Both the position numbers and the translations under genes were made by a program. From Gemmatimonadales bacterium (lineage in GTDB: Bacteria; Gemmatimonadota; Gemmatimonadetes; Gemmatimonadales; GWC2-71-9): DNA of 64,000 bases. A model generated the notes under the pieces. The model did not search any database. It saw only the letters and a program-made list of their open reading frames with translations, and had not been told where the DNA came from. Positions 21,433 to 63,570 of the stretch are shown piece by piece. The stretch is from the NCBI GenBank assembly GCA_036377715.1, contig DASUXW010000161.1, forward strand, positions 9,870 through 73,869, written 5' to 3'. Within the stretch, counting starts at the first letter, position 1, and each line of letters begins with the position of its first letter.

Positions 21433-21626
21433 TGTTGCAACCTCTTGATAGGGAGCCCGCAGGCCCCGGGGAAACCCCGGCCTTCGTGGCCGGGTGACAC
21501 TGCCCCAAAGAAAAAGCCGCCCGGATTCAACTCCCGGCCGGCCGGCGACGACTCAATCGTGCAAGGGGTTCACTTCGCGGAGCATGGTCTAAGGTCATGC
21601 GGGGAATGGGATTTGTCAATATGGCG

Positions 21627-21666
21627 GGCGGACAGGCGGACAGGCGGACAGGCGGACAGGCGGACA
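21627..21666. repeat. Tandem octamer repeat (GGCGGACA) x5
   Basis: Five perfect consecutive copies, read directly. Confidence 0.95.
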
Positions 21667-21679
21667 GAGCGGTTCATCG

Positions 21680-22035
21680 GTGCGGCGCGTGGGCGGAGCT
21701 TCCGGAACAAACCGTAGACAAGACGGACGGCGAGATCGCGCTGCGAGTCGAGCGATTGCCAATCGTCGTCGGACAGCAGTCCTCGATCGTGGCTGAATCG
21801 GAGGAGCTAGGCGAGCTCGGAGCGCGACCCAAGGGACATATGGAGAAAGCGTTCGAATTCCCGTTCGCCCGGCTTCGCCGCACCTTCGGCGAGGTTGGTC
21901 GGCATCGAGAGCACCGCCTTGCGCACCTGCGAAGTCACCCCATACAACTCGCTTCGAGGCCATCGATCCGTTCGCGAGGAAACCGCCAGCACCGACTGGT
22001 GCGCGGCCCGCGTCGAAGCGCTCGAACGCCATCAT
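21680..22035 (-). pseudogene. Four-helix-bundle protein of the 23S rRNA intervening-sequence family (PF05635/TIGR02436-like), disrupted
   Basis: 'MMAFERFDA' in one frame, then 'AHQSVLAVSSRTDRWPRSELYGVTSQVRKAVLSMPTNLAEGAAKPGEREFERFLHMSLGSRSELA' in another frame. An in-frame TAG follows (21807-21809), then 'LLRFSHDRGLLSDDDWQSLD...VYGLFRKL'. Confidence 0.7.
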
Positions 22036-22105
22036 ACTTCAACGGTGGTGAATACCGCCGGTTCTTGACAGCCCAATCCACGCCTGCATCATCCCGCCCG
22101 CCCGT

Positions 22106-22627
22106 CTATCTCAACACGACTCCTGCCGTCCGCAATTCATGATCGAGCAGCCAGCGTTTGCGTGCCAGGCCGCCGCCGTAGCCGACCAGCGAGCCGTCCT
22201 TTCCGACCACGCGGTGACACGGAATGAGGATGGCGAGGTGATTGGCGGCCACCAGCCAGCCGATCTGCCGCGGGTGCAGACGGGTGGCGCGGGCGATGTC
22301 ATCGTACGAACGGGTCTCGCCCAGCGGGATCTTCCGCAGGGTCTTGAACACCGCCACCTGCGCCGGCGAGAGCTCGAACCAGTGACGCAGGTGCTCGGGA
22401 AATGGGAAAGCCCGGGGAGACCCGGCGAAGTACTCGTCCAGCCACGCGGCGGTGATGCGGCATGGCCCCTGGCCGATGTGAAGCTCCGGAATCGCCGAGC
22501 GGAGCCGCACGGCCCACTTCACGTCGGGGGTCCGGTGCGGAAACTCCACTACCAGCGGCCCTGTCTCACATTCCACTACTGTGAGTGCGCCGATGGGCGA
22601 ACTGTAGGTCGTCCATTCGACCTGCAT
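22106..22627 (-). CDS. ogt: Methylated-DNA--protein-cysteine methyltransferase
   Basis: Active site 'IPCHRVVGKDGSLVGYGGGLARKRWLLDHE'. Confidence 0.9.
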   Translation of the reverse strand: MQVEWTTYSSPIGALTVVECETGPLVVEFPHRTPDVKWAVRLRSAIPELHIGQGPCRITAAWLDEYFAGSPRAFPFPEHLRHWFELSPAQVAVFKTLRKIPLGETRSYDDIARATRLHPRQIGWLVAANHLAILIPCHRVVGKDGSLVGYGGGLARKRWLLDHELRTAGVVLR

Positions 22628-22730
22628 GCTGGTCTCCGGGGAGCTTCACAGGAAAGGTAGCCGCCGCCGCCCACTGGAGCCAACGGGCGCCCGCTGACGC
22701 CGCGGCCACCTTCACCTTACATTTAGCGCC

Positions 22731-23342
22731 ATGACGTCACCTCAGTCGCTCGTGGTACGCACGTTTACCGATCGCGCCGAGGGGCTGTCCCACTTCGTGC
22801 TCCGGGCCGGTGAAGCGCCGCGGCTCCTTGCGTTCGACGACGCGCTTGGCTGTCCGCTCGAGACCGCGCTCGCGGCGCTCGAGTGGACCGGCGCGGTGGG
22901 GATCCTGCTCGACGACGATCAGCTGCACGCCGCCCGGCTCACCAGCGAGACGGCGGCCGCGGTGGTCGAGCGTAAGGGGCCCGACGGCCGGAGGTTCGTG
23001 TATCTCGGACCCCGGCTCGACGCGCCGCCCATGGATGTGTTCGAGGGTGCGGTGCTGTTTGACGAGCCCGGGGTCAAGGCGGTCGAGTTCACCCACCGCG
23101 CGCACGCCCTGGCTCACTTCCTCCGGGCGACCTCGGGCGCCGGCGCGCTGCTCGCCCTGCTCGGCCGGCGCGCTCCGGAGCTCCGCCACCTTCGGCGCTG
23201 GCTGGGGCCGATCATCCAGCGGCTCGACGTGCCCTGTCCGCTGGTGGCGGGGTGGTTTGCGGCCAGCTCGGCAGGGTGTCTGTTCGCCTCGCTCGAGGCG
23301 GAACCGGTGTACCGCTACGTTGAGGTCGGGCTGGAGCCCTGA
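22731..23342 (+). CDS. Hypothetical protein (203 aa)
   Basis: Long ORF with ordinary composition. No recognisable family. Confidence 0.5.
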   Translation: MTSPQSLVVRTFTDRAEGLSHFVLRAGEAPRLLAFDDALGCPLETALAALEWTGAVGILLDDDQLHAARLTSETAAAVVERKGPDGRRFVYLGPRLDAPPMDVFEGAVLFDEPGVKAVEFTHRAHALAHFLRATSGAGALLALLGRRAPELRHLRRWLGPIIQRLDVPCPLVAGWFAASSAGCLFASLEAEPVYRYVEVGLEP

Positions 23343-23479
23343 CGGAGCGTCAGGACCACGTGTGGGAGTGTGGATTCACATCTCCACATTGTGTGGACGG
23401 ACGGGGTAGGCTGCGGGCCGAGCACGGGTTAGCTATCCACACCGCTGGTCGATAGAAGTGGCGTAACCCGAATAAAGTC

Positions 23480-23515
23480 AGGCACTTGCGAGATTATCGC
23501 GGGTGCCTATTTTCA
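23480..23515 (+). terminator. Intrinsic terminator candidate (12-bp stem including two G.U pairs, GAUUA loop, ATTTTCATT tail)
   Basis: AGGCACTTGCGA-gatta-TCGCGGGTGCCT followed by a T-rich run. Confidence 0.6.
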
Positions 23516-23906
23516 TTCTACGCGCTCCGTTGGATGCGTGCTGGGGCCCCGAGCTTCAGTAACGGCCGGCAGGGCGGGCTCGAGCGGGATATCAGGGGAG
23601 AGGGCCGACGCAACCAAGGGCTCAGGCTCTCGTCGATCCTGGTGATCACCCCGGCTCGGGCAGGTGAAGCCAGTCGCGTGCTTCATCCACTCCGATCTGG
23701 CGCCTCGGAGTGCAGTGCGAACGGTCGGTCCGCGACCCGATCCGACTCGCAGCGCTCGAATGGACGAACCAGGCAGGATGGCCATCCAGCTTGGGGATCA
23801 AAACCGAGGCCTCACCACGCCCTCCCGAGCGGCGAACCAGCCAACCGGTGGCAGGTGGGAGAAGAACGGCGGCAGCAATGCCCCGACCCCGGCATAGTCC
23901 ACACGT

Positions 23907-23947
23907 GGGACGGCCGCCTAGCCACGACTGGGCGGCCGTTCCGTTTT
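23907..23947 (+). terminator. Intrinsic terminator candidate (12-bp GC stem, then GTTTTCT)
   Basis: GGGACGGCCGCC-12 nt loop-GGCGGCCGTTCC, then GTTTTCT. The U tract exists only on the + strand. Confidence 0.6.
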
Positions 23948-24949
23948 CTATCCTATCTCATTGCCGTCGTTCGGCGGCAGACCCCAGTCGCTCACACCCC
24001 GGTAGGCCCGGCGCCGGTCGAGCTGCCAGAGCTTGGCGCTCACCAGGGCATCGCCCGTGAAGTTGGCCGGGTCGCCGAGCGCGTCGGCCATGCCGGCGGT
24101 CTTGGCGCTCGCGTTGTCGGCGTAGTGGAGCACTTCGGCCTCGAGCGTCATCGGGGGAATGGCGGCGCCGAACTCCGGCTTGCCGTGATGGGAGGCGATG
24201 AGGTGGTGCAGCACCGTGAGCTCGCGGTCGGTGCATGGCGCCGGGTCTTCGCGCGCCACGCGCCGGTCGAGCATGAGAAGACCGAGCGTCACGTGCCCAA
24301 GCAGCGCGCCGCACTCGGTGTTCTCGAAAACGCCTTCCCACCGATATGCCTCGAGCTTGCCGATATCGTGCAGCAGCGCGCCGGCCAGCACCAGCTCCGA
24401 GTCGGCGTGGCAGGCCTTGGCAATGGCCCGCCCGATAGCCGCGACTTCGCAGGTGTGCCGGAGCAGCCCGCCGAGCTCGGCGTGGTGCCCGACGGTGCTC
24501 GCGGGACACTCCTGGTAGCGCCGGCGGAACTCGTCGTCGGCATAGAACAGCTCCAGCGTGCGGCGGAGCCGCGGACGCCGGAGCTCGCCGCGCCAGCGGT
24601 CGAGCAGGTCCCAGTAGGGTGCGACCTCACGGACGGAGCGGACGAGCTGACGCCAGTCAATGGCGCCCCGCGGGAGGATGCGGATCGAGCTGATCTTGAG
24701 CTGGCGCTTGCCGTTGTACTGGCCCACTTCGCCGATGACCTGGGCCACGTCTCCCCGGGCTATGCCGGCGATACGCACTTGATCTTCGGGCCAGAAGGGA
24801 GCGCTCGGGATCTGCCCGTAGCAATTGCCGAGCACGAGGGTGGTGAAGGCGCCGCGGCCGGAATCGCGCTGCTCGACCTCGAGCACGAGCAGCGGGTCCT
24901 GCACGCGGCTTCCCACGGCGAGCTGCTTGAGATCGGGCGGCCCCGACAT
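23948..24949 (-). CDS. OB-fold + HD-domain protein (YhaM-like 3'-5' exoribonuclease family)
   Basis: N-terminal OB 'VLGNCYGQIPSAPFW...VIGEVGQYNGKRQLKI'. HD region 'HHAELGGLLRHTCEVA...ALLHDIGK'. Start taken at the MSGPPD Met. Confidence 0.8.
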   Translation of the reverse strand: MSGPPDLKQLAVGSRVQDPLLVLEVEQRDSGRGAFTTLVLGNCYGQIPSAPFWPEDQVRIAGIARGDVAQVIGEVGQYNGKRQLKISSIRILPRGAIDWRQLVRSVREVAPYWDLLDRWRGELRRPRLRRTLELFYADDEFRRRYQECPASTVGHHAELGGLLRHTCEVAAIGRAIAKACHADSELVLAGALLHDIGKLEAYRWEGVFENTECGALLGHVTLGLLMLDRRVAREDPAPCTDRELTVLHHLIASHHGKPEFGAAIPPMTLEAEVLHYADNASAKTAGMADALGDPANFTGDALVSAKLWQLDRRRAYRGVSDWGLPPNDGNEIG

Positions 24950-25025
24950 GGCTGACTCGGCGGCTGGATTGGGCACAAGATAGGTCCGTCTGTCTCCGGC
25001 GGGAACTCGGCAGTAGGTTGGAGCC

Positions 25026-25403
25026 ATGGATCCGATGCACCTGCTCGTGCTCGAGCGCGACCCGGACCGGCGGGACGCGCTGTTGGCGACGCTGCGCGGC
25101 GCGGGGCATCACGCCGTCGCGGCTCCCGATGCGGGGGCGGCGGCGACTGCGTTGGCCGCGCCCGGCTTCGACGCGCTGGTGCTCGACCTTGGCCTGCCCG
25201 ACCTGGACACGGCGCGGCTGCGCGAGGCACTGGTGCCGACGGAGACGGCGGCGCCCGACTCCCTGGAGGCGGCCGAGCGACGCCACATCGCCCTGACGCT
25301 GCAGCATACCGGCGGCAACAAGCGACGCGCGGCGCTGCTGCTTGGCATCTCCCGATCCACCTTGCTGCACAAGGTGCGGAAGTACGGGCTCGGCGCCATT
25401 TGA
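25026..25403 (+). CDS. Truncated receiver + Fis-type HTH protein ('mini-NtrC', no AAA+ domain)
   Basis: REC-like 'LLVLERDPDRRD...DALVLDLGLPD', followed directly by HTH_8 'RRHIALTLQHTGGNKRRAALLLGISRSTLLHKVRKYGL'. Confidence 0.7.
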   Translation: MDPMHLLVLERDPDRRDALLATLRGAGHHAVAAPDAGAAATALAAPGFDALVLDLGLPDLDTARLREALVPTETAAPDSLEAAERRHIALTLQHTGGNKRRAALLLGISRSTLLHKVRKYGLGAI

Positions 25404-29421: not shown

Positions 29422-29443
29422 CCTTCAGCCGCACGAGGCGTCC

Positions 29444-33532: not shown

Positions 33533-33546
33533 GGGGCCTCATGTGG

Positions 33547-33638
33547 GACGGAGAGACGGAGAGACGGAGATGGACGCCACACCACCTGGCGTGGTTTACC
33601 TGTCCGTCCCTCCGTCCCTCCGTCCCTCCGTCTTCCGT
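33547..33638. repeat. Imperfect long hairpin built from (GACGGAGA)x3 and (TCCGTCCC)x3-4
   Basis: Units read directly. The arms are complementary except one A/C position per unit. A central 5-bp CGCCA/TGGCG stem is present. Confidence 0.85.
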
Positions 33639-34420
33639 TTGAAGTCTTCGATCACCGCCGCATGCTCACGGTACTCGCTCCGGCCCGCCCGCATCTCGGC
33701 GGCGTAGTGCGCCAGGAAGTCGCGGCCGGCGCTCGACCGGGCGGCGGTGTCACCCTGGAGCTCAGCGGCCTGGCCGCGGACCAGATAGCCGAACAGGTGG
33801 CCCGGCGAGCGGACGAGAATGGTGTCGGCGAGCGCGAGCGCCCCCGGGAGGTCGCCCACCTGAAGACGGAGCACGGCGGCGTGATAGCGGGCGTCCGCGT
33901 CGATGCTGTCGAGCTGGGTGTAGGCGCCGAGGGCCATCGGCGTGAAGCGGACCACCTGGGCGCTGTCGCCGGCTTCCGCCGCCTGCATGATGCGGTTGAA
34001 CAGCCGGTCGAATCGCTCCCGCGGGGTCATGCTGCTGATGTCCGGTGCCGGACCCATGGCCGGGCCCTGGCTGCCGAGCGCCTGCGCGCTCGCCGAGCCC
34101 GCATTGGCCATGTCGGGCGCCACCGGCGCGGGTGGTCGCCAGACCCGGAGGAGGATCGCCGCCAGGAAGGCCGCGCACAGCACGCCCGCGATGATCCAGG
34201 CCGTGCGCTCGCGCGACGGCAGCGGCGCAGTGGTGGGAGGACCGGCGCCACCCGCCCCGACCGGACGCCCGCACCGGTGGCAGAAGCGCGCCCGCGCCGA
34301 GAGGTCGGCGTGGCAGGCCTCGCAGGTGCGCGCCGTGAGGCTCGCGCCGCAGGCGCTGCAGAAGTTGCCGGTGGCGGGCGTGCCACAGGCTGGGCAGGGC
34401 GTCGGCGATGATGCGGTCAT
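33596..34420 (-). CDS. Zinc-ribbon / single-TM / periplasmic helical-repeat protein
   Basis: N-terminus 'CPACGTPATGNFCSACG...CEAC...FCHRCG', TM 'AWIIAGVLCAAFLAAILL'. The last ~12 codons are encoded by the repeat element. Confidence 0.6.
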   Translation of the reverse strand: MTASSPTPCPACGTPATGNFCSACGASLTARTCEACHADLSARARFCHRCGRPVGAGGAGPPTTAPLPSRERTAWIIAGVLCAAFLAAILLRVWRPPAPVAPDMANAGSASAQALGSQGPAMGPAPDISSMTPRERFDRLFNRIMQAAEAGDSAQVVRFTPMALGAYTQLDSIDADARYHAAVLRLQVGDLPGALALADTILVRSPGHLFGYLVRGQAAELQGDTAARSSAGRDFLAHYAAEMRAGRSEYREHAAVIEDFKRKTEGRRDGGTDR

Positions 34421-34541
34421 GGCGGGAGAAGCGTAACCCGGTATCGAGGTCGGGGAAAGGATGCGCGGGGCCTTACCCCCGTGCCGTTCCCGGGATTTCT
34501 TTCAGTCTGCACCCTTCATCCACGCGGGAGACGCAATCGCA

Positions 34542-35942
34542 ATGGCTCACGCCAGACAGCGGGCGGGCGGCACCGCCGAGCGGCCCAGCCTCGAGGAGTT
34601 TCCGGAGGACCTGAGCGGCGCGCAGCGCGACGATCTGCTGGAGCTGGGCGACCGGTTCGGCGTCGAATTCCTCCGGCTGCAGTTCACCGACATTCTCGGC
34701 ATCAACAAGAACGTCGAAGTGCCGCGCAGCCAGTTCGCCAAGGCCCTCGACGGCGAGATGATGTTCGACGGCTCGTCCATCGAGGGATTCGTGCGGATCG
34801 AGGAGTCGGACATGCTCCTCAAGCCCGACCTCGGCACCTTCCGTCTCCTCCCCTACGAGGACGAGGGCGGGCGGGTGGCGCGGCTGCTGTGCGACATCTA
34901 CACGCCCGAGGAAGAGCCGTTCGCCGGCTGCCCCCGGACCACCCTCAAGCGCCAGCTCGCGAGAGCGAAGAAGCTGGGCTTCGGCATGATGGCGGGGTGC
35001 GAGGCGGAGTTCTTCCTGTTCGAGCGGGCGCCGGACGGCTCGCCCACGCTCGCGACGCACGACTCGGCCTCGTACTTCGACCTGGGCCCGCTCGACAAGG
35101 GCGAGGAGATCCGGCGCGTCATCGTGGAGCAGCTGGTCCGGATGGGGTTCGAGGTCGAGGCGGCCCATCACGAGGTGGCGACGGGGCAGCACGAGATCGA
35201 TTTCCGGTATGCCGACGCCCTGGTGACGGCCGACAACCTGACCACCTTCAAGTTCATCGTCAAGAACGTCGCCAGCCGGTACGGGTACTTCGCCTCGTTC
35301 ATGCCCAAGCCGATCCAGGGGATTCACGGCAGCGGGATGCACACGCACCAGTCGCTGTTCCGGGGGAAGGAGAACGCGTTCTACGATCCCAAGGGCGAGT
35401 ACCAGCTCTCCAAGGTCGCCCTGAGCTACGTGGAGGGGCTGCTGCAGCACGCGCGCGGATTCTGCGCGATCACCAATCCGCTGATCAACAGCTACAAGCG
35501 GCTGGTGCCGGGCTTCGAGGCTCCGAGCAACGTGGCGTGGTCCACGCGGAACCGCTCGCCGCTCGTGCGCATTCCCGACCGGCGGGGGCTCGGCACCCGA
35601 TGCGAGCTCCGGATGCCCGACCCGTCGTGCAACCCCTACCTGGCCCTCACGGTCCAGCTCGCGGCGGGGCTGGACGGGATCGAACGGAAGCTCGCCGCGC
35701 GGCCGCCGGTCCACCGCAACATCTTCACGATGAGCTACCGCGACCGCCGCAAGTACCGCATCGACGAGTTGCCCCGGGATCTGCACGAGGCCCTCGAGAT
35801 GTTCGAAAAGGACAAGGTGATCCAGGCGGCGCTCGGAGAGCATCTGACGGAGCGGTTCCTCGAGGCCAAGCGCGACGAGGTGCTGCAGTACAACCTGCAG
35901 GTGAGCAGGTGGGAGATCGACACGTATCTGGGGAGATATTAG
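34542..35942 (+). CDS. glnA: Glutamine synthetase (type I-like)
   Basis: 'FDGSSIEGF', 'HHEVATGQHEIDF', 'KPIQGIHGSGMHTHQSL', 'SNVAWSTRNRSPLVRIP'. Confidence 0.9.
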   Translation: MAHARQRAGGTAERPSLEEFPEDLSGAQRDDLLELGDRFGVEFLRLQFTDILGINKNVEVPRSQFAKALDGEMMFDGSSIEGFVRIEESDMLLKPDLGTFRLLPYEDEGGRVARLLCDIYTPEEEPFAGCPRTTLKRQLARAKKLGFGMMAGCEAEFFLFERAPDGSPTLATHDSASYFDLGPLDKGEEIRRVIVEQLVRMGFEVEAAHHEVATGQHEIDFRYADALVTADNLTTFKFIVKNVASRYGYFASFMPKPIQGIHGSGMHTHQSLFRGKENAFYDPKGEYQLSKVALSYVEGLLQHARGFCAITNPLINSYKRLVPGFEAPSNVAWSTRNRSPLVRIPDRRGLGTRCELRMPDPSCNPYLALTVQLAAGLDGIERKLAARPPVHRNIFTMSYRDRRKYRIDELPRDLHEALEMFEKDKVIQAALGEHLTERFLEAKRDEVLQYNLQVSRWEIDTYLGRY

Positions 35943-35986
35943 GAAGATCGGAAGGGGCCGTTCCTTCGGTCCTTCAGCCCTTCAGT
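35943..35986 (+). terminator. Imperfect hairpin containing (CCTTCRGY)x3 after glnA
   Basis: GAAGG-ggccgtt-CCTTC core stem. Three tandem octamers at 35963-35986. Confidence 0.45.
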
Positions 35987-36672
35987 CATTCCGCCCGTGT
36001 CAGCTCCAGCGTGATCTGCCCGAAGGGCAGGGGAAGCTCCATCTCTACGGGGAGCCGGCGGGCGTCGTCGGTCAGCGCCACACTCATCCGGAGTGAGCGG
36101 GAGGCGACGTCCAGCAGGAGGACGGGGACCGATGATCCCGAGGGGAGCGTACGCGTCTCCCTTCCCACTACCTGCACACGGATCGGGTTATAGCCGGTCT
36201 TGAAGTAGCGGGGAATCTCGTAGGTGGCGCCGGGCCGGAGCGGCGCGGTGCGGAGATAATAGAGGAACGCGAGCTCGTCGAGCGGATTGGACGGGGCCAT
36301 CCAGTCCTGCGGATTGCCTACCTCGCGATAGCGGCTCGAGTCGGGGATGATCTGGTACTGCGCATCCTCCACCCGGCCGCCCTGGAAGAAGCGGCGGTGG
36401 AAGCGCAGGGAGTTGAACCCGCGGGTGCCGACGTACGACGTGAGCTCCGCTCCCACCCGGATGCCCATGGGCCGGCCCTCGCCCGAGGCCTCGAACACGA
36501 ACGCCTCCCGCCCGCGCTCCTGCGTCATCGAGTTGACCGACATGGTGGCGGTGCCGACCGGGAACACGCCGAGACTCGCCTGGTACTGCAGGGTCTCGCC
36601 GACGGCAAAGGGGTATGGGGCGGCCAGGCGCGCGAGGAGCGCCGCATGGACGAGCAGCGGGGTGACCGGCAT
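35986..36672 (-). CDS. DUF3108-like protein
   Basis: 'GETLQYQASLGVFPVGTATMSV', 'YFKTGYNPIRVQVVGRE', 'LPVEMELPLPFGQITLEL'. Start taken at the MPVTPLL Met. Confidence 0.6.
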   Translation of the reverse strand: MPVTPLLVHAALLARLAAPYPFAVGETLQYQASLGVFPVGTATMSVNSMTQERGREAFVFEASGEGRPMGIRVGAELTSYVGTRGFNSLRFHRRFFQGGRVEDAQYQIIPDSSRYREVGNPQDWMAPSNPLDELAFLYYLRTAPLRPGATYEIPRYFKTGYNPIRVQVVGRETRTLPSGSSVPVLLLDVASRSLRMSVALTDDARRLPVEMELPLPFGQITLELTRAE

Positions 36673-49069: not shown

Positions 49070-49128
49070 CTTGCAGCGCTCCGCTCGGCTTGCGCAACCC
49101 CTTGTGCAGTCTTACGTTTGCTGTCCCC

Positions 49129-49199
<71 letters not shown>

Positions 49200-49208
49200 C
49201 TCCGTCCG

Positions 49209-51326
49209 ATGCACGACCACGACAGCCATTCCGACCATCATCACCATCGTCCGGCCCCGCCATCGGGGCCGGCGCCGGCCGAGCCGGGCTATCCGGAGCA
49301 CCCGGAGACGCACGCGGCGGAGCACGGCGGCGGCCATGCGGGCCACGACAAGCACGCTGGCCACTCCGTCGCGATGTTCCGCGACAAGTTCTGGCTCTCC
49401 CTGCTCCTGACCATCCCGACGCTCGTCTGGGGGCACATGCTCCCGCGAGCGCTGGGCTACACGCGGCCGCCGTTTCCCGGCTCCCATCTGATCGCGCCGC
49501 TCTTCGGCACGGCGGTGTTCCTGTACGGCGGACGGCCGTTCATCCAGGGCGCCGCGAGGGAGTTGCGCGACCGGCTGCCCGGGATGATGACGCTGATCGC
49601 GCTCGCGATCACCGTCGCCTTCGTCTTCAGCGCCGCCGTCACGCTGGGCTGGCCCGGCATGCCGCTCTGGGAGGAGCTGGCCACACTGGTGACGATCATG
49701 CTCCTGGGCCACTGGATCGAGATGCGGAGCATCACCCAGGCGCAGGGGGCGCTGGCCGAGCTGGCGAAGCTGCTGCCCAATACGGCGGTTCGGATCGCCC
49801 GTGAGGGAAGTACCGAGCGCATGGAGGACGTACCGCTCACCGCGCTGGCCCACGGCGATCTGGTGCTGGTTCGGCCGGGCGCCAGCGTGCCGGCCGACGG
49901 CCAGGTCCGCGAGGGGCACAGCAGCGTCAACGAGTCGATGCTCACCGGCGAATCCCGGCCGGTCGAGAAGCATCCCGGCGACCGGGTCATCGCCGGCACC
50001 GTGAACCAAGCGGGCTCGCTCCGCGTCGAGGTCACGGGAACCGGCGAGCGGACCACGCTGGCCGGGATCATGCGCCTGGTGGACCAGGCGCAGAGCTCGC
50101 GCTCCCGGGCGCAGGCGCTCGCGGATCGCGCGGCCTTCTGGCTCACCATCATCGCGCTCGTGGCCGGCGCGGTCACGTTGATCGCCTGGCTCGCCGCCGG
50201 GGCGAGCGGGGCGTATGCGGTCGAACGCCTCGTCACCGTGCTGGTCATCGCCTGCCCCCACGCGCTCGGCCTCGCGGTGCCGCTGGTGATCGCGATCTCG
50301 ACCACGCTCGGGGCGCGCAGCGGCCTCCTCGTGCGCGACCGCCGCGGATTGGAAGAGGCGAGGCACCTGGACGCGGTGGTGTTCGACAAGACCGGCACCC
50401 TGACGCTGGGAGAGCATCGGGTGGTCGGCCTCAGGGCGGCCGGCGGTCTCACGGAGGACGATGCGCTCCGGCTGGCCGCCGCGGTCGAGCAGGATGCCGA
50501 GCATCCGGTCGGGCGCGCGATCGTGAGCAGCGCCGCGGCGCGCGGGCTCCAGGTTCCGCGCGCGACGGACTTCGAGGCGATCGCCGGACACGGCGTCCGG
50601 GCCACCGTCGCTGGTCGGCGGCTCGAGGTGGGCGGACCCAATCTGATCCGTCGCGACAACGTCGCGATGCCTGCCGAGCTGGAAGCGTTCGCGGACGAGG
50701 CAGCCGGACGCGGACAGAGCGTCGTCTATCTGGTCGGTGACGGCGATGCGCTCGCCGCCTTCACGGTGGCGGATGCGATCCGACCCGAATCGGCGGAAGC
50801 GGTTCGCCGGCTGCATGCGCAGGGTCTGCAGGTGGTCATGCTCACCGGGGACGCTCGTGCCGTCGCCGAGGCGGTCGGCCGCGAGCTGGGGATCGACACC
50901 ATCTATGCGCAGGTGCTCCCGGAGCAGAAGGTGGAGCGGATTCGGGAGCTCCAGCGGGCGGGCAAGCGGGTCGCCATGGTCGGCGACGGCGTGAACGATG
51001 CGCCGGCGCTGGTGACGGCCGACGTGGGTATCGCGATCGGCGCCGGCACCGACGTGGCGGTGGAGGCGGGCGACGTGGTCCTGGTCCGGAGCGATCCGCG
51101 CGACGTCCCGCGCATCGTCCAGCTCTCCCGCGCGAGCTACCGCAAGATGGTCCAGAACCTCTGGTGGGCCGCCGGGTACAACATCGTGGCGATGCCGCTC
51201 GCGGCCGGGGTGCTGGCGTCGGAAGGCATCGTCCTGTCGCCGGCGGTCGGCGCCATCCTGATGTCGCTCAGTACCGTCATCGTCGCGGTGAACGCGCAGC
51301 TCCTTCGGCGGGTGCGGCTCGGGTGA
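49209..51326 (+). CDS. copB: P1B-type heavy-metal ATPase, CopB-like (His-rich N-terminus, CPH motif)
   Basis: '[13 protein letters not shown]', 'TGESRPV', 'ACPHALGLA', 'DKTGTLT', '[10 protein letters not shown]'. Confidence 0.9.
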
Positions 51327-51338
51327 GCCCGGGCTGAC

Positions 51339-51499
51339 TCACCACGGAAGCACGGAAGGCACGGAAGTGACACGGAAGGGGCGTCGGAGCAGTTCAGGGA
51401 GCGGAGCCCACGACGACATGCTTGTTGTTGTCACACGGAACCGTCCCGCCCCGGGGAACCTTCGGTGTCACCGCCGTGCCTTCCGCGCTTCCGTGGTGA
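51339..51499. repeat. Long inverted repeat of CACGGAAG-type tandem units (~41-nt arms, ~76-nt loop)
   Basis: Left arm TCACCACGGAAGCACGGAAGGCACGGAAGTGACACGGAAGG. Reverse complement of the right arm is TCACCACGGAAGCGCGGAAGGCACGGCGGTGACACCGAAGG (4 mismatches). Confidence 0.85.
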
Positions 51500-52815
51500 C
51501 TGGACAGGAGCGCGGGGCGGAGACGGGCGAAGACCGCGACTCCCACCGGCGTGCGGCTACCGTACGCCGGCTCAAGCGCGTCCGGGACCAGGTTGACCGC
51601 CGCCCGAGTCCCGACGCCGAGCGTGGCCCCCTGGAAGGCGGCGAACTCGCGAACGTAGCCGAGCGACAGGGTGCCGGTATCGAACTCCTCATCTGCTGCG
51701 CCGGGAATCACCAGGTCCTCGGCACTCTTCCGCACGTACTCGATTCGACCGAACACGGTGTTGGCCCGGTCGAGCTGCAGGTTCGATTCGGCCATCAGGC
51801 TATGCTCCCAGCCGCCGCCCTCGCCGCCGCGCGGCACGTGCTCGTTGCCCCCGTAGATCAGGGCGGACGCCCACTCGCCCGCGTTGCCGAACCGCAGGGT
51901 GTGCAGAACGGACGCGCCGAGGCGGCGCTGATCTTCGTCCGGATGGAGTGCCTCGGGCCGGACGAGATAGCCGTAGCTCGCGCTCAGCGCCCAACGCGAG
52001 GTCGGGTTCGCCGACACCCGGAAGCCGTACGAGTCGAGCGGGTGAAAGTCGAAGTCGTACCGGTCCTCATCGGGCTCCCGGCCGTTGAAGAGGGTGGCTT
52101 CGAGCTTCACGCTTCGGGTGAACACCCCCGCCGTCAGCACGCCGTAGGTAATGTGGGTGGCGTCGGTCCAGTGGTGCGGCAGCGGCGCGAACGGGTCGTT
52201 GAGCGCCGATGGGCGGTGCATGTATGCAACCGGTCCGATCCCGGGCTCGCCCACGGGGGCGGCGTAGACGACGACGCCGAGGCGGCGTGAGACCGGCCGC
52301 TCGTACATCGCCGACAGCTCCATGAAGAGGTCGTGCGGATGCTGCCGATCGTGGAGCGGTGCGCCCCGGTAGGATTCGCCGCTCTGCAGGAGCAGCGGAT
52401 AACCTCCCGCCCCGATCGTGAGCGGCTCGGCGCTCATCATCCCGTGGAGGTGCAGCGTGCCGGCGCCCAGCGGTCGCATGGCCATGAGCATCGCCCAGTT
52501 GATGCTGCCGAGCTGGTCGTCGCCGCGCGCCCCGCCCTGATGGTCGTACTGCAGAAAGGCATCGCCGTGCACCATCAACATCCAGCGCCCGGCGGTGAAG
52601 TGCCATGCGCGCATTCCCGAGGCGTCGGGAAGCCAGGCGGTGCCGGAACCCATGCGGGTCATCGGGATCCCGAGCGGACGCACGGGCATGTCCGGCATCG
52701 CGGGCATGGCGCTGGAATCGTGGTGCTCGTGGCCGACCTGCGCTGACAGGCTGCACGCCGGAAGCACGGGGCCGGCGGTCGCGAGGACGATCGGAAGGAC
52801 CAGACAACGGGCCAT
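51394..52815 (-). CDS. Secreted/outer-membrane protein with His/Met-rich N-terminus (putative copper-related)
   Basis: Signal peptide 'MARCLVLPIVLATAGPVLPAC'. 'GHEHHDSSAMPAMPDMP'. Beta-rich body. The last ~34 codons run into the repeat element. Confidence 0.6.
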   Translation of the reverse strand: MARCLVLPIVLATAGPVLPACSLSAQVGHEHHDSSAMPAMPDMPVRPLGIPMTRMGSGTAWLPDASGMRAWHFTAGRWMLMVHGDAFLQYDHQGGARGDDQLGSINWAMLMAMRPLGAGTLHLHGMMSAEPLTIGAGGYPLLLQSGESYRGAPLHDRQHPHDLFMELSAMYERPVSRRLGVVVYAAPVGEPGIGPVAYMHRPSALNDPFAPLPHHWTDATHITYGVLTAGVFTRSVKLEATLFNGREPDEDRYDFDFHPLDSYGFRVSANPTSRWALSASYGYLVRPEALHPDEDQRRLGASVLHTLRFGNAGEWASALIYGGNEHVPRGGEGGGWEHSLMAESNLQLDRANTVFGRIEYVRKSAEDLVIPGAADEEFDTGTLSLGYVREFAAFQGATLGVGTRAAVNLVPDALEPAYGSRTPVGVAVFARLRPALLSSHHGSAEGTAVTPKVPRGGTVPCDNNKHVVVGSAP

Positions 52816-59258: not shown

Positions 59259-60056
59259 TCAGGAGTAGTAGCGCTTGAGGTAGGCGGCGACGCCGTCGAG
59301 GTCGGGGAACAGGCGGCGCTCGTCCACGCTCACCATGTCGAGCTGGTCGCGCACGCGGCCGGCGTGCTCGGCGGGAATGACCATGCGGGTCAGTGCACCG
59401 CCGAGCCCATGACGCTCCAGGAATTCGTCGAATGTATGGCGCTTGTCGGAGCAGAGCGTAAAGGCCGCCGACTGCGCCACGATGCGCGAATCGAGCGAGG
59501 GCGGCTCGATCATGCAGGCGAACGGCCGGCTGTCGTCCTTCATCGCGAACAGCGCGGCCGGGGTGAACGGGCGGTCGCCACCCAGCATCTCTTCCAGATC
59601 CTGGATCAGGAGCGCCAGCTCGGGGAGCCCGAACCGGCGGTGCACCTCCTTCCAGTCGAGCCGCCACACGGCGCGATCGGCCTCGGCCGGTCCGCCCACC
59701 GTGGCGAAGTGGGCAGCTACGAGCGGCGAATAGGTCCAGTCCAGCAGCCGCGTGGGCAGCCCGTGGTGCTGCGCGGCCACCAGGACTTCCCAGTCGTTCT
59801 CCGGCGGGTTCAGGAAGTACGGCCGGGAGTACCGGATGAAGTTGCGGAGGATGTACTCCTCGAGGTCGGCCTTGGCGTGGGGCGACGAGGCGCCGCCGAG
59901 CTTGTCGAGGCTGGTGAGCAGCGGCCAGCCTGCATCGGCCGCACCGCGATAGACGCCGCTGCTGCGGCGGCGCCCGGTCGCCGGATCGGGCTCGGCCGGC
60001 GTCGTGGCGGCGATCAGATCGCCCAGCGAGGTGATCACGACGTCGCGGATCGTCAT
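59259..60056 (-). CDS. FRG-domain protein
   Basis: 'VYRGAADAGWPLLTSL', 'EVLVAAQHHGLPTRLLDWTYSPLVAAHFA'. Confidence 0.75.
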   Translation of the reverse strand: MTIRDVVITSLGDLIAATTPAEPDPATGRRRSSGVYRGAADAGWPLLTSLDKLGGASSPHAKADLEEYILRNFIRYSRPYFLNPPENDWEVLVAAQHHGLPTRLLDWTYSPLVAAHFATVGGPAEADRAVWRLDWKEVHRRFGLPELALLIQDLEEMLGGDRPFTPAALFAMKDDSRPFACMIEPPSLDSRIVAQSAAFTLCSDKRHTFDEFLERHGLGGALTRMVIPAEHAGRVRDQLDMVSVDERRLFPDLDGVAAYLKRYYS

Positions 60057-60120
60057 GGCTGGATATGAAGTCGGCTCCGCGGGGTCGCGCAAGGGCGGCG
60101 ATGGCGGCCAAGTTTCGCCC

Positions 60121-61020
60121 ATGCCTCCGATCGACCTCAGCGCGCTCGCGGCCAGGCTTCCCGCCCGGCCGCTCACCCGTTTCGCACCGAGCCCGACGGG
60201 ATACCTGCACCTGGGCCACGTCGCCAACGGGGTGTGGGTGTGGGGTGTGGCACGCGCACTCGGCGGCCGGGTGCTGCTCCGGCTCGAAGACCACGATCGG
60301 GGGCGCTGCCGGTCCGAGTACGAGGCGGCGCTGCTCGACGATCTTGCCTGGCTGGGCCTTGCGCCCGAGCTGGGCACGCCCCTGCGCCAGAGCGATGCCG
60401 GCGAGCACTACACGGCGGCGCTGGAACGGCTGGGTACGGACGTGTTCGCCTGCGAGTGCTCCCGAAAAGACCTGGCGCAGGTCGTGGGCGACGTGCTCAA
60501 CCAGGAGACGCGCTATGCCGGCCGATGCCGCGACCTGGGGCTCGAGCGCAGGCCCGGTCGCGGGCTCCGGCTGCGGCTCGCGCCCGGGGGCGAGTGCTTC
60601 GTCGACGCGCGGCTGGGGCCCCAGGAGCAACACCCGGAGCTGCAGTGCGGCGACCTGCTCCTCCGGGACCGGATGGGTTGGTGGACCTATCAGTTCGCCG
60701 TGGTCGTGGACGACCTGCGCCAGGGAGTGGATCTGGTGATCCGCGGCGAGGACCTGCTGGATTCAACGGGACGGCAAATCCTGCTGGGCCGCCTGCTCGG
60801 GCGCGGGGTGCCGCCGGTCTTTCTGCACCACCCGCTCATCCTCAAGCCGGGCGGCGAGAAGCTGAGCAAGTCGAGCGGCGACACGGGGATCCGGGAGCTT
60901 CGGGCGGCGGGCGCGACACCGGCGCAGGTGCTCGGGCGGGCCGCGTGGCTCACCGGCCTCCAGCCCGGTCCGGCGCCGCTCCGGCCCGACGATCTGGCCG
61001 GGCTCTTTGCCGAAGGTTAG
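60121..61020 (+). CDS. gluQ: Glutamyl-Q tRNA(Asp) synthetase (truncated GluRS paralogue)
   Basis: 'RFAPSPTGYLHLGH', 'LRLEDHD', 'YQFAVVVDD', 'KLSKS'. About 300 aa with no anticodon-binding domain. Confidence 0.85.
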   Translation: MPPIDLSALAARLPARPLTRFAPSPTGYLHLGHVANGVWVWGVARALGGRVLLRLEDHDRGRCRSEYEAALLDDLAWLGLAPELGTPLRQSDAGEHYTAALERLGTDVFACECSRKDLAQVVGDVLNQETRYAGRCRDLGLERRPGRGLRLRLAPGGECFVDARLGPQEQHPELQCGDLLLRDRMGWWTYQFAVVVDDLRQGVDLVIRGEDLLDSTGRQILLGRLLGRGVPPVFLHHPLILKPGGEKLSKSSGDTGIRELRAAGATPAQVLGRAAWLTGLQPGPAPLRPDDLAGLFAEG

Positions 61021-61053
61021 CATCTTCCGGGATACCTGCCGGACGGAGGAGCG

Positions 61054-61656
61054 ATGACGAACGCATTCAGAGTGCTCGCGGCCGGAGCGGTTGTCGCGTT
61101 GGCGACTGGTTTGATGCCCCTCGAGCGAGCCGAGTCCCAGCAATTGCCGCGCGTCGTCATCGAGACCGAGCTCGGCGACATCGAAGTAGAGATCGACAGC
61201 ATCCACGCTCCGGTCACATCCGCCAACTTCCTCCGGTACGTCGATCTCGGCTTCTACCGGTTCGGCCGCTTCCACCGCACCGTGCGGGCCGACAACCAGC
61301 CCAACGACAAGGTGAAGATCACGGTGGTGCAGGCCGGGCTCGACCCCTACCGGGTCAAGGATTTTCCCCCCATCCCGCTCGAGCGCACCAAGGACACCGG
61401 CCTCCGGCACAAGGACGGCACCATCTCAATGGCCCGCGACGGCCCCAACACGGCCACCTCCGACTTCTTCATCTGCATCGGCGACCAGCCCGCGCTCGAT
61501 TACGGCGGAAAACGGAACCCTGACGGCCAGGGCTTCGCGGCGTTCGGACGGGTGGTCCTGGGAATGGACGTGGTTCGGAAGATCAATCAGTCGCCGGCCG
61601 AGGGGCAGAGGCTGGAGCCGGCGATCGGGATTCGGGAGATTGGGAGGAAGCGGTGA
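61054..61656 (+). CDS. Cyclophilin-type peptidyl-prolyl isomerase, secreted
   Basis: Signal peptide. 'FHRTVRAD', 'GTISMARDGPNTATSDFFICIGDQPALD'. Confidence 0.9.
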   Translation: MTNAFRVLAAGAVVALATGLMPLERAESQQLPRVVIETELGDIEVEIDSIHAPVTSANFLRYVDLGFYRFGRFHRTVRADNQPNDKVKITVVQAGLDPYRVKDFPPIPLERTKDTGLRHKDGTISMARDGPNTATSDFFICIGDQPALDYGGKRNPDGQGFAAFGRVVLGMDVVRKINQSPAEGQRLEPAIGIREIGRKR

Positions 61657-61663
61657 GCGAAAT

Positions 61664-61747
61664 GCGGTAAGCGGTAAGCGGTGAGCGGGAACTGCACACC
61701 GGAGTGGTCTGGTGTGCGGTTCCCGCTCACCGCTTACCGCTTACCGC
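61664..61747. repeat. 37-bp-stem hairpin built from GCGGTRA heptamer repeats (10-nt loop)
   Basis: The left arm (61664-61700) is the reverse complement of the right arm (61711-61747) with a single T/G difference. Confidence 0.95.
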
Positions 61748-63570
61748 TCACTGCCTCCGTGCAAGATCCCGCTCCGAACCCTCACCGCCTTCCCCGACGC
61801 CGCCGGATCGATGCTCAGCCGCCGCTCGATGCGGGTGGCCAGGCGCACCGTGCCGTTCAGCGTGATCGTCTGGCCGGCGCGGCGGACGACGATAGAGAGA
61901 TGTTGTCCTTCCGCGTGGCTGAAGCGGGTGCGGTACTGCTCGCCGAAGCTCGAGTCGGTGACGGCCAGCTCGCCCAGTTTGAGCAGGACGTCGCCGCTCT
62001 GCACCCCGGCATCCGCAGCGGCGCTTCCCGGGACGACCTCGGTCACCATGATGGCCCCGCTCGAATCCACGTTCGTGCCGATGCCGAGCCGGGGCTCGCG
62101 CACGGTGTCGGCCTCGAGCCGGAGCCCGGCCAGCGGGAGCACCTCGGTCCACGGGAACGGCAGGCGGCCGTCCACGTACTTCGCCGCGAAACCATTGAAG
62201 TTTTTCCCGCCGCCATTCCGGGACACCGCGCGCCACCAGTCCGCGCCCGTGAACCCTCGACCGGCCTTGTAGGTGCTCCGGTAGAGGTCGCGCATGACAT
62301 CATCGAGGGAGTGGTGGTTATCGCTCGCATCGCGGATCAGGATGTCCAGCAGCAGCCCCGCCAGAGAGCCCTTGGGATAGTAGAGGTAGCCGCTGCCGTC
62401 GGTGGGGTGGATCCAGGTCGAGAGCGAGGCATCCTCCAAGGCCGTGGGCGGCGCCTCCGCGACCGTGCCGATCTTCTGGGTGGTGGTGGTGAGGAACTGC
62501 GCGCTGTCGATGACTCCGCCCCGCAGGACCGCCAGGTCGGCGTAATAGTCGGTGATGCCCTCGCTGACCCAGAGCCAGGGCGTGGGCTCGCTCCGGTCGT
62601 AGCGATAGGGCACCATGTCGGCCGGGCGGAGCCGCTTGACGTTCCAGGCGTGGAAGATCTCGTGCGCGGTGATCGACGGCAGAATCGGAGTGCCGATGAA
62701 GCCGGGGTTATAGATCCCTACGTGCGAGTTGGTGTGCTCCAGCGCGCTCCCGCCGCCGTAGGTCGAGTCGAAGATCATCATGACCGTGTAATTCGGCCAC
62801 GGTGTCTCACCGAACACGGCAGCCTCGGCGGGGATCACCTTCCCGATCTCGTCCCAGACCTGCGCCCGCGCCGGGCCGGTGAGCTGTCCTGCCGGATAGG
62901 TGGCGAGACGGGTCCAGGTTCCGGCCACCCTGGTGCTGTCGTAGTCCATCCGGCCCACGAAGAACGGCTTGTCCACCAGGTCGTGGTAGTTGCCTTCGCG
63001 CCAGGTACGCCGGCGGCCGGGCACCGCCCGCATGCCGGTCGCGACCAGCCACTCGGGCTCCGTGTTCACGGTGACGGTCGCGGGGAAGTCGGTGCCGCGA
63101 CCTTCCGGATACGGGAACACGTTGGTGCCGTTGAACAGCGCGAAGTCGGGCCGGGCCCAGGCCATCGCGTTGTCGAGCGTGTCGGCCAGGTAGTCGAAGT
63201 GCAGGGTGATGGCCCGCGCGCCGCCGGGCTGGATCCGCCAGGTGTCATAATCCAGCTTGTCCCACGGGAGGGCCTTCCCGCCGCCGGTCGGGTTGAAATT
63301 GGAGACCCAGCGCGCGAACCAGCTCAGCTCGTAGGCGCCGGGTGTCCATGCCGGCAGCGACAAAAGCACCAGCCCCGGCCCCTTCACGTCGAAGCTCATC
63401 GCCACCTTGAGCGTGCGGGCGCGCGCGGTGGCGGAGTCGAAGGTGATCTCGTAGCGCACGTTCGCGATGGGCGCCGAGCGGACTGGACGTGGCTGCTGGG
63501 CCGCGACGGAGCGCACGGGGACAGCCAGCGCCAGGGCAGTGACACAGGAATACAGGGTGCGACGTTTCAT
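61741..63570 (-). CDS. M61 glycyl aminopeptidase with C-terminal PDZ domain
   Basis: 'HEIFHAWNVKRLRP', 'SEGITDYYA', PDZ 'GVQSGDVLLKLG'. Signal peptide present. Confidence 0.85.
   Translation of the reverse strand: MKRRTLYSCVTALALAVPVRSVAAQQPRPVRSAPIANVRYEITFDSATARARTLKVAMSFDVKGPGLVLLSLPAWTPGAYELSWFARWVSNFNPTGGGKALPWDKLDYDTWRIQPGGARAITLHFDYLADTLDNAMAWARPDFALFNGTNVFPYPEGRGTDFPATVTVNTEPEWLVATGMRAVPGRRRTWREGNYHDLVDKPFFVGRMDYDSTRVAGTWTRLATYPAGQLTGPARAQVWDEIGKVIPAEAAVFGETPWPNYTVMMIFDSTYGGGSALEHTNSHVGIYNPGFIGTPILPSITAHEIFHAWNVKRLRPADMVPYRYDRSEPTPWLWVSEGITDYYADLAVLRGGVIDSAQFLTTTTQKIGTVAEAPPTALEDASLSTWIHPTDGSGYLYYPKGSLAGLLLDILIRDASDNHHSLDDVMRDLYRSTYKAGRGFTGADWWRAVSRNGGGKNFNGFAAKYVDGRLPFPWTEVLPLAGLRLEADTVREPRLGIGTNVDSSGAIMVTEVVPGSAAADAGVQSGDVLLKLGELAVTDSSFGEQYRTRFSHAEGQHLSIVVRRAGQTITLNGTVRLATRIERRLSIDPAASGKAVRVRSGILHGGSER

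Follow-up and report, generated by a model that had tools for sequence, protein, structure and literature searches.

Can a bacterial genome form long, ordered repeat hairpins between its genes, each from a different short word, without a mobile element that carries them there? The question is raised by a stretch of 64,000 nucleotides from Gemmatimonadales bacterium (NCBI GenBank assembly GCA_036377715.1, contig DASUXW010000161.1, positions 9,870 to 73,869 of the forward strand), here called the window, in which at five loci (elements 1–5; Table 1) a unit of 7–9 nt is repeated in tandem. A sequence-only reading of the window had described these loci as hairpins positioned exactly on gene ends and had attributed them to a generating mechanism rather than to a mobile sequence. 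In our view the five loci are probably long simple-sequence repeats (SSRs) with units of 7–9 nt that form where they stand, through slippage and inverted copying, spread into intergenic space that is under no constraint and are sorted by constraints at the level of translation. It should be noted that arrays of this class are already known; new are the site-specific units, the seed, the concerted change of the two arms, the rewriting of protein C-termini and an absolute polarity in new phyla.

The window has a G+C content of approximately 70%, and its GlnA is 85–91% identical to the glutamine synthetases of metagenome-assembled genomes (MAGs) of Gemmatimonadales; looking up exactly this protein returned no entry. 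Repeat units and arrays were called with Tandem Repeats Finder (TRF), and for the window inverted repeats and the z values of folds against shuffles were also scored. Genes were called from third-position GC and Pfam matches, and the calls are approximate. The five repeats lie where the sequence-only reading had placed them, as confirmed by the sequence and by TRF. Six arrays of period 7–9 were counted in the window, whereas 100 dinucleotide shuffles gave 0.20 on average and 1 at most; of long inverted repeats there are four, three of them elements of this set, versus 0.43 expected. The sequence-only reading had named a frequency at the level of shuffled sequence as a reason to give it up; what is found are arrays approximately 30-fold above the shuffles with edges that pile up on stop codons. 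Its description of all loci as hairpins holds for elements 2, 4 and 5, the only three of the five loci with significant hairpins (33545-33633, 51339-51499 and 61648-61754), and has to be withdrawn for element 1, which shows no hairpin signal, and for element 3, whose fold is not significant. Elements 3, 4 and 5 are housed in gaps between convergent genes. None of the five units recurs elsewhere in the window, each being confined to its own locus. In an Rfam scan of the whole window a tRNA-Cys alone reached the threshold and no element was matched, and none of the five elements qualified in a terminator scan and a promoter consensus scan of the window; none has a T-tract. That the loci are not CRISPR arrays had been recognized from the start: their units are contiguous and 7–9 nt long, unlike CRISPR repeats of at least 20 nt with unique spacers.

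Table 1. Coordinates in the window of the five elements and of the genes next to them. Array, arm and fold data were obtained as described in the text; percentages of arrays are TRF matches, those of arms are complementarity.
Feature	Position	Strand	Description	Array (TRF)	Inverted-repeat arms	Fold region and z
Element 1	21627..21672	.	(GGCGGACA)x5.6 tandem array, no inverted partner	8 nt x5.6, 97%		21600-21700: -0.1
Element 2	33545..33633	-	Hairpin; left arm (GACGGAGA)x3, right arm (TCCGTCCC)x3.8	Left arm 33547-33570, 8 nt x3.0, 100%; right arm 33603-33632, 8 nt x3.8, 100%	40 nt, 80%	33535-33645: -5.9 (+ strand), -8.0 (- strand)
Element 3	35943..35996	.	Weak unequal remnant; left GGAAGATC GGAAGGGG, right four NNNCCTTC-type units	35962-35991, 8 nt x3.8, 81%		35935-36000: -0.9/+0.2
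Element 4	51339..51499	.	Hairpin with CACGGAAG(G)-type arms	51343-51379, 9 nt x4.0, 86%	51339-51390 and 51448-51499; 52 nt, 83%; 57-nt spacer with inner hairpin	51330-51479: -3.6
Element 5	61648..61754	.	Near-perfect palindrome of GCGGTRA units	Left 61648-61688, 7 nt x5.9, 73%; right 61723-61748, 7 nt x3.7, 94%	61664-61703 and 61708-61747; 40 nt each, 95%; 4-nt loop	61640-61775: -14.9/-14.4
Cold-shock protein gene	21232..21432	-	PF00313 (CSD domain), E = 6e-28; element 1 lies upstream in gene sense			
Double-zinc-ribbon (DZR) gene	33596..34420	-	Pfam match; stop at 33596			
473-aa conserved gene	51394..52815	-	No Pfam match; stop at 51394, inside element 4			
Cyclophilin-type peptidyl-prolyl isomerase (PPIase) gene	61054..61656	+	Pfam match; stop 61654-61656 in first unit of element 5			
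M61 peptidase gene	61741..63570	-	Pfam match; TAA in outermost GCGGTAA unit serves as stop (61741-61743)			

The arrays were followed in a set of 158 high-G+C loci (1.76 Mb in total; designated by L-numbers where needed) made up of 80 loci around glnA from GTDB genomes, 80 loci around the M61 peptidase gene from metagenomes, and a few more; both neighbourhoods were picked since the window has elements there. With a detection threshold of three copies, TRF finds in this set 220 arrays of period 6–10. By period there are 99 arrays of 7 nt, 76 of 8 nt, 40 of 9 nt, 4 of 10 nt and one each of 6 and 5 nt. An inverted partner, defined as one within 300 nt, is present for 116 of the 220. The Gemmatimonadales subset (695 kb) contains 102 arrays as compared to 0–6 in shuffles; its period-7 arrays are intergenic in 32 cases, at gene edges in 8 and coding in 4, and all its period-12 arrays are coding. 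Acidobacteriota and other soil MAGs of the sample also carry arrays. Among 215 arrays 128 distinct units were counted, and the most frequent copy number is 4. Across 22 long loci the genomes showed no overdispersion in array density (p = 0.21). Arrays occupy 12% of the convergent, 8% of the divergent and 7% of the tandem junctions. They are therefore an intergenic feature and not specifically a feature of gene 3' ends, to which the sequence-only reading had confined them.

How an array may start is suggested by element 5. The PPIase and M61 peptidase genes converge here, and the element takes up all of the space that separates them. The closest syntenic relative of the window is L161 (~82% protein identity; 90% nucleotide identity over M61). 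In the alignment of the two, element 5 is a clean insertion of ~97 nt in the window; L161 is without it, and its convergent M61 and PPIase open reading frames overlap by 74 nt (1190-1263). Both PPIase genes end in AAGCGGTGA (AAG CGG TGA). Because the array-free L161 shares this end with the window, the GCGGTGA unit is the PPIase gene's own last 7 nt, and the terminal AAG CGG TGA apparently was, judging from these two sequences, the seed from which the unit derives. PPIase genes ending in AAG CGN TRR are also frequent in array-free lineages, and the M61 gene often ends in GCAGTRA; two convergent genes with ends of this kind are a ready-made inverted seed of 7 bp. The GCGGTRA unit is found in L127 as well. 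A second local seed is present in L090 and L091, in which (CGTCCGAC)n expands a TGACGG stop context that is intact in L111, where there is no array. Apparently, then, a gene end of 7 nt has grown to an 84-nt palindrome with 95%-complementary arms, which supplies the stop codon of the neighbouring gene. Element 5 would thus be a concrete example of how a hairpin can be born without point-by-point compensatory mutation. Among 76 metagenomic lineages, approximately 35 have an array that starts at or overlaps the M61 stop codon, the remainder being without an array at this site. The units include GCGGTRA, GAAGTGA, GAGGTRA, ACGGTAG, GGAGCTR, GCAGGAA (x11), TCACCAG (x12), GGACGGAGA and GACGCAGAG. 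As a detail of L161, no stop codon belonging to the M61 open reading frame itself is present close to the conserved C-terminus, and the frame continues into the antisense of the PPIase gene.

The fate of arrays can be followed at the junction between the DZR gene and an MqnA-like gene, both on the minus strand. Here element 2 spans the gap from the conserved DZR C-terminus to the ribosome-binding site of the MqnA-like gene, and the GAGG ahead of the MqnA start codon comes just after the end of its array. The orthologous junction contains arrays with other units in L001, L002, L003, L005, L008, L027, L032 and L034. For example, the unit is GGAAGGAC in L001, L003 and L005, GCGGTAAGG in L008, TAAGGGCGG in L027, CGGCGGGA in L032 and GGACAGGC in L034, as against GACGGAGA in the window. 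When only the left arms are compared, the units of the window (GACGGAGA), L005 (GACGGAAG) and L002 (GACGGAAA) form a series with one or two substitutions that are carried through the units of the arm. The substitution is present in both arms in L005; in the window and in L002 the arms differ at one position. This series is a case of concerted evolution with some independence of the arms. Arrays also vary between strains with flanking genes that are 98–100% identical. Between L105 and L106/L107, for example, 450 nt of flanking coding sequence are free of differences, and the left arm of the array has two in 27 nt; the pair L152 and L153 (97.8% identical) differs in units and in the length of the C-terminal tail. 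The sequence-only reading had also named ordinary conserved terminators at the orthologous loci of relatives as evidence that would count against it; gain and loss of arrays are seen instead.

Arrays can even rewrite the C-terminus of a protein. The final ~11 codons of the DZR gene (TEGRRDGGTDR) and its stop codon come from the right arm of element 2; DZR orthologues are conserved up to ...EDFKRK, after which their tails are variable in length and sequence. Element 4 lies between the 473-aa gene and a convergent P-type ATPase gene, and the C-terminal ~35 residues of the 473-aa protein and its stop codon are encoded by the right arm and the loop of the element. The core of this protein is conserved to ...RLRPALL, after which most of 7,179 homologues have a tail that is short and rich in His and Met. 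In the window, in P0001 and in P0002 the usual tail has given way to a long one of ~35 or more unrelated residues encoded by the hairpin (~35 in the window). In P0001, a 99%-identical strain, the gene spacing (67 nt) and the tail are the same as in the window. The L161 orthologue of element 4 has the same CACGGAAG unit and a diverged interior. In L164 element 4 is absent, and the 473-aa and ATPase genes overlap by 35 nt (3435-3469). That four open reading frames end inside the elements was verified for each of the stop codons. The further statement of the sequence-only reading that the elements supply short C-terminal tails applies to the DZR and 473-aa proteins, but not to the PPIase and M61 proteins, which are of normal length with stops merely within the outermost repeat units. 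Gene callers are misled by such arrays: open reading frames run into or through the palindromes, and apparent overlaps of convergent genes result.

The position of the arrays relative to genes follows rules. Array edges are a median of 1 nt away from the stop codon, and 51 of 89 stop-proximal arrays have their edge within -10 to +4 nt of it. From start codons the median distance is 14 nt, the same range being reached by only 7 of 54 start-proximal arrays. Of 77 hairpins, 59 have the purine-rich arm on the 5' side, none has the pyrimidine-rich arm there, and 18 are ambiguous; the ratio of purine-first to pyrimidine-first is 24:0 at convergent, 18:0 at tandem and 7:0 at divergent junctions. When all arrays are read in the sense of the gene, those near stops are purine-rich in 57 cases and pyrimidine-rich in 6, and those near starts are pyrimidine-rich in 24 and purine-rich in 4. 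Single arrays behave alike (16 purine-rich versus 6 pyrimidine-rich after stops; 11 pyrimidine-rich versus 1 purine-rich before starts). A general property of hairpins was considered as the source of this polarity and rejected, ordinary intergenic hairpins giving 29:15 and coding hairpins 53:54. The 59:0 rule applies to Gemmatimonadales, Acidobacteriota and other soil MAGs and has an independent equivalent in Xanthomonas (see below), which points to a general unexplained constraint or function.

A mechanism in which the arrays build themselves would account for these properties as follows. Replication slippage would amplify a short stretch already present at the site, which in at least two cases would be the stop-codon context of the flanking gene. 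The array would then be copied as its reverse complement across the short intergenic gap, yielding a palindrome, the simplest route being template switching during replication. Continued slippage and copying would keep both arms changing together. Arrays that arise in this way are not mobile elements, which would explain why units tend to differ from site to site. The arrays would grow until they meet constrained sequence, which is why they would abut or overrun stop codons, rewrite C-terminal tails that tolerate it, and halt ~14 nt before start codons. Translation would then act as a filter. Next to a stop codon only arrays that are purine-rich in sense would pass, their units being able to contain stop codons; upstream of a start codon only arrays that are pyrimidine-rich in sense would pass, as these avoid a run of Shine-Dalgarno- and start-like motifs. 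Applied to pairs, this filter would yield the purine-first rule. Effects of the arrays on transcripts, such as termination or processing, are probably incidental. One consequence for genome scans is that "covariation" in such stems is no evidence of a functional RNA.

Several observations weigh against this explanation or parts of it. The window and L161 are only two taxa and do not polarise gain versus loss, so that L161 could have lost the element, keeping one unit. Units are shared (at most one mismatch) between separate sites within a contig in 19 of 121 pairs (15.7%) versus 3.1% between contigs, and exact matches amount to 7.4% versus 0.9%. Reuse within contigs is thus 5–8 times the between-contig rate, which is not predicted by purely local seeding. 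For example, L073 has GGTTCCAR at three junctions, L071 likewise reuses a unit at three, and L158, L143 and L153 at two each; loops and flanks are unrelated at sites that share a unit. Reuse needs an added process, possibly ectopic copying, similar seeds derived from stop codons (many units are of the type NNGGTRA), or a preference peculiar to a genome. Since the sampling was centred on two neighbourhoods in which the window was known to have elements, orthology makes the counts pseudo-replicates, and they carry an ascertainment bias. The recurrence of arrays at the same junction across many lineages could reflect selection for a function. While the polarity itself is observed, the translation filter as its cause is something we infer, as are slippage and template switching as the molecular steps. 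Units containing a stop codon make up 41% versus 23% expected on the purine strand and 13% versus 6% on the other; because this ~2-fold enrichment occurs on both strands, it is not specific to the sense strand, and selection for sense stops is not specifically supported. And finally, a mirror-register test of en-bloc copying of arms gave 14 of 39, a result that speaks neither for it nor against it because TRF boundaries blur the symmetric register.

Arrays of a related kind have been described in other bacteria. In Xanthomonas there are ~70 convergent inverted pairs of GGGAATC arrays per genome, which lie <50 bp from a stop codon or overlap it with the G-rich strand in sense, and are found in antisense orientation upstream of open reading frames (Rehm et al., 2015, PLoS One, PMC4692102). 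Between close species the arrays differ in how long they are and in sequence, but not in whether they are single or paired. Like the related Nostoc arrays they are mostly intergenic and unlinked to mobile elements, and their function is unproven. Xanthomonas with GGGAATC and Nostoc with GGGGAYT each use one genome-wide G-rich unit with G3-4 tracts, interpreted as forming G-quadruplexes (PMC4692102). The elements discussed here resemble the Xanthomonas arrays in being intergenic tandem heptamers with convergent inverted pairs, stop-abutting edges and strand polarity. They differ in that each site in the window has its own unit with no genome-wide G-rich consensus, that most units are probably unable to form quadruplexes, that periods of 8–9 nt are as common as 7, and that the lineage is a different one; the local seed, the concerted change of two arms and the rewriting of C-terminal tails are not in Rehm et al. 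(2015). Long SSRs have units of 5–11 nt, heptamers being the most abundant; their origin was ascribed to slippage of the polymerase, for which a contact length of ~7 nt was suggested; units that are not multiples of 3 are excluded from coding sequence, and the hosts are free-living bacteria with large genomes (Mrazek, Guo and Shah, 2007, PNAS, as reported in PMC4679880 and PMC4692102). By that description the present arrays belong here, being over-long, with units in the 5–11-nt range and heptamers foremost, mostly non-coding when of period 7, and changing rapidly at the strain level. To judge from what the citing papers say of the 2007 survey, it does not include inverted pairing, gene-oriented polarity or an edge-on-stop rule and does not highlight Gemmatimonadota or Acidobacteriota. 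Template switching during replication is known to make short-range reverse-complement copies, through which perfect hairpins can arise in one event and be kept intact, and to introduce multi-base "compensatory" changes (Monttinen and Loytynoja, 2022, PNAS, PMC8794818). It was shown in rRNA and other RNA genes, not in tandem-repeat arms; in the present case it would give complementary arms without selection on the RNA. The correction of quasi-palindromes in bacteria is a process of this type. The TAACTGA repeats of marine Beggiatoaceae and cyanobacteria are intergenic heptamers tight on the boundaries of coding sequences with a unit that contains stop codons (MacGregor, 2015, PMC4679880). They differ in having one fixed unit per genome and a single inverted pair among 170 sets, and in lying mainly just upstream of starts; the cyanobacterial short tandemly repeated repetitive (STRR) heptamers are grouped with them as similar. 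The BoxC/TMECO triplex motif was considered as a relative and dismissed as an unrelated element with a fixed consensus. We found no paper describing such arrays in Gemmatimonadota or Acidobacteriota.

That the hairpins are selected bidirectional terminators or insulators without a U-tract, or protectors of mRNA 3' ends, is in our opinion not likely, although it is the main rival. Slippage would then be the easiest mutational path to longer stems, and the purine-first polarity would be functional. RNA:DNA hybrids with purine-rich RNA are more stable than those with pyrimidine-rich RNA. The pyrimidine-rich 3' arm that has just been made would therefore form the weakest RNA:DNA hybrid, and folding of the hairpin could free the transcript without a U-tract. 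U-tract-poor hairpin terminators have been reported from high-G+C bacteria. The elements are like intrinsic terminators in being GC-rich hairpins directly 3' of genes, and a palindrome in a convergent gap could serve both genes; unlike these they have no T-tract, although a canonical terminator is present in the window at 23905-23944, their stems reach 40 bp of tandem units, and they are also present between divergent genes. In the window, convergent gene pairs enclose three of the five elements, and another comes after a stop codon; occupancy peaks at convergent junctions (12%) but is nearly as high at divergent (8%) and at tandem ones (7%). A ratio of 59:0 in array hairpins versus a weak 29:15 in ordinary ones is as expected for a functional polarity, but single arrays without a hairpin are oriented by the same rule. 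Pairing is maintained during sequence turnover, and Xanthomonas transcripts begin or end at such repeats more than at control repeats (PMC4692102); on the other hand, close relatives are without the elements, their convergent genes even overlapping, and element 1 has no hairpin. A G.U wobble in the sense RNA is an A.C mismatch in the antisense RNA, so that junctions transcribed one way can reveal which RNA is under selection. At such junctions (n = 17) the sense RNA was the more stable in 9 and the antisense RNA in 8 (p = 1.0), i.e., there is no sense/antisense asymmetry; the differences in stability were large in both directions. With this result, the missing T-tract in the elements of the window and relatives that do without, there is no positive evidence for a function. 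Rather unlikely is also a broader proposal, namely that the arrays are widespread unrecognised cis-elements of soil phyla (Gemmatimonadota, Acidobacteriota), Xanthomonas and cyanobacteria that act as self-building, U-tract-independent bidirectional terminators or insulators with a functional purine-first polarity, their words being reused through copying between sites or by a trans-acting factor. If it were true, expansion of simple sequences would be a general bacterial route to regulatory structure from nothing.

A trans-acting factor that recognises or writes a genome-specific word, the arrays being its binding sites or products, would be a single-strand- or RNA-binding protein with a 7–8-nt register or a templated repeat-adding activity. 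The reuse of units at unlinked sites with unrelated loops at 5–8 times the between-contig rate, the single genome-wide unit in Xanthomonas, Nostoc and Beggiatoaceae and the narrow range of periods (7–9 nt) would fit such a factor. We nevertheless regard it as clearly improbable, since the five units of the window are all different and none recurs in it, units differ in 84% of the site pairs within a contig, there are 128 distinct units in 215 arrays, the unit of element 5 is a pre-existing local sequence, and no candidate factor was found. Very improbable is a role as non-B DNA regulatory elements, G-quadruplexes formed by the G-rich arms, or cruciforms, that modulate transcription or replication. 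It is true that layout and polarity are as in the quadruplex-forming GGGAATC arrays and that some units have runs of three to four G, e.g., GCGGGGAA, GAGGGAAA and CAGGGAT. But a run of at least three G is found in just 77 of 215 units, the other 138 having runs of one or two; in the window GG occurs once per unit in GACGGAGA, CACGGAAG and GCGGTRA and twice in GGCGGACA, and quadruplexes are impossible with units such as GTAAACG, GGCTATT and TCACCAG. The modal copy number of 4, which would suit a quadruplex, is also expected from a decaying length distribution above the three-copy threshold. There remain the copies, or scars left by excision, of a small mobile element with variable stems, similar to a MITE (miniature inverted-repeat transposable element) or a repetitive extragenic palindrome (REP), an idea that is largely refuted and retains next to no probability. 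Like MITEs and like REPs and their bacterial interspersed mosaic elements (BIMEs), the elements are palindromes in intergenic space, often where convergent genes end, and occur in some strains and relatives but not in others, and true REP-like palindromes exist in these lineages, sometimes nested in the loops of arrays. Yet there is no common sequence, there are no terminal repeats, target duplications or near-identical copies, and units, loops and flanks are unrelated between sites, in keeping with the sequence-only reading, which had set the loci apart from REP/BIME families. Units drift gradually at orthologous sites, no Rfam family is matched, and element 5 has a unit taken from the flanking gene end and boundaries that are ancestral gene-end sequence, with no duplicated target as in a MITE. 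Nothing supports the insertion/excision scars that the reading had listed among its candidates. Its preference for a generating mechanism is supported by the differing units at orthologous junctions, by the variation in presence and by the origin of the element 5 unit; its statement that there is no shared consensus is correct for the window, where each site has its own unit, and has to be qualified for other genomes, in which units are reused 5–8 times more often than expected from the between-contig null.

The REP-like palindromes just mentioned belong to two families, TCATCCCGAGCGAAGCGAGGGATC... and GTCACCCTGAGCGAAGCGAAGGGGGCATG..., and are found 3' of the M61 stop in unrelated metagenomic lineages: in L081 (6400-6500), L083 (7770-7803), L084 (2800-2900), L087 (7350-7450) and L115 (4560-4650), and also in L124, L129, L131, L135, L151 and L157. 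In L084, L087 and L129 the palindrome is inside the loop of a tandem-repeat hairpin, between the array and its inverted copy. As they have a shared consensus, unlike the arrays, they are a separate element; they are probably mobile and seem to target or tolerate array hairpins.

Element 1 is the exception with respect to position. It lies 195 nt upstream of the start of the cold-shock gene, in a non-coding region of ~670 nt (21433-22105; G+C 0.64) between this gene and an ogt-like methyltransferase gene. Two open reading frames around it, 21616-22035(-) and 21597-22142(+), were rejected as spurious: GC3 (the GC content of third codon positions) is 0.54–0.65 there as compared to 0.85–0.93 in real genes, and they have no Pfam match. 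Because this region is without a coding signature, element 1 is not at a gene end, and the claim that the repeats are positioned exactly on gene ends, although in line with the edges that pile up on stop codons, does not extend to it. Element 1 is pyrimidine-rich in the sense of the cold-shock gene and thus obeys the gene-oriented polarity rule. On the minus strand the array is immediately followed by a TTGACA hexamer; if this is a -35 box, the array is in the position of an upstream promoter element. The octamer GGCGGACA also builds a hairpin at the end of a zinc-ribbon gene in Gemmatimonadales L034 (1907-2000), where the array encodes a tail of ~30 residues (...RRLSARRLSACPPVRPSIYI). One word is thus found at differing sites in differing genomes.

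Element 3 sits between the convergent glnA and DUF3108 genes, a junction with strong arrays in L018, L014, L022, L029, L030 and L043. At the DZR/glnA junction, too, there are arrays whose units differ among species; the window's own DZR/glnA gap (34421-34542) has none. At least eight species have kept the unit pair (GTRAACG)n and (GTTCACY)n, ~45–60 nt apart, in this divergent gap just upstream of glnA, namely L018 (9967-10065), L013, L016, L019, L022, L028, L029 and L043. The pair brackets the likely promoter and leader region of glnA, and in L029 a further pair, (GWCAGGA)n/(GACTCCN)n, is nested there. The constancy of the (GTRAACG)/(GTTCACY) unit across species, unlike the situation at other junctions, could indicate a regulatory role for glnA.

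The terminator scan found a canonical terminator-like hairpin at 23905-23944 (+), with a 17-bp stem followed by TTTCTATCC. At 2506-2539 there is a perfect 15-bp stem with a 4-nt loop that begins 5 nt past the stop of the gene at 1932-2501. These ordinary terminator-like hairpins indicate that the repeat hairpins are not the only kind of post-gene hairpin of this organism.

The 473-aa protein itself has a signal-like N-terminus followed by a His/Met-rich stretch, and its homologues usually end in a His/Met-rich tail (HAMDPEMHH). Its gene is convergent to that of a P-type (E1-E2) ATPase, located in the window at 49230-51326 (+), in four of four relatives examined. Taken together, these sequence features suggest that the 473-aa proteins are an uncharacterised family involved in metal handling. 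A tRNA-Cys (GCA) gene at 49129-49200 (+) lies within the 5' end of the mechanically called open reading frame 49071-51326, and the real start of the ATPase gene must therefore be downstream, near 49230.

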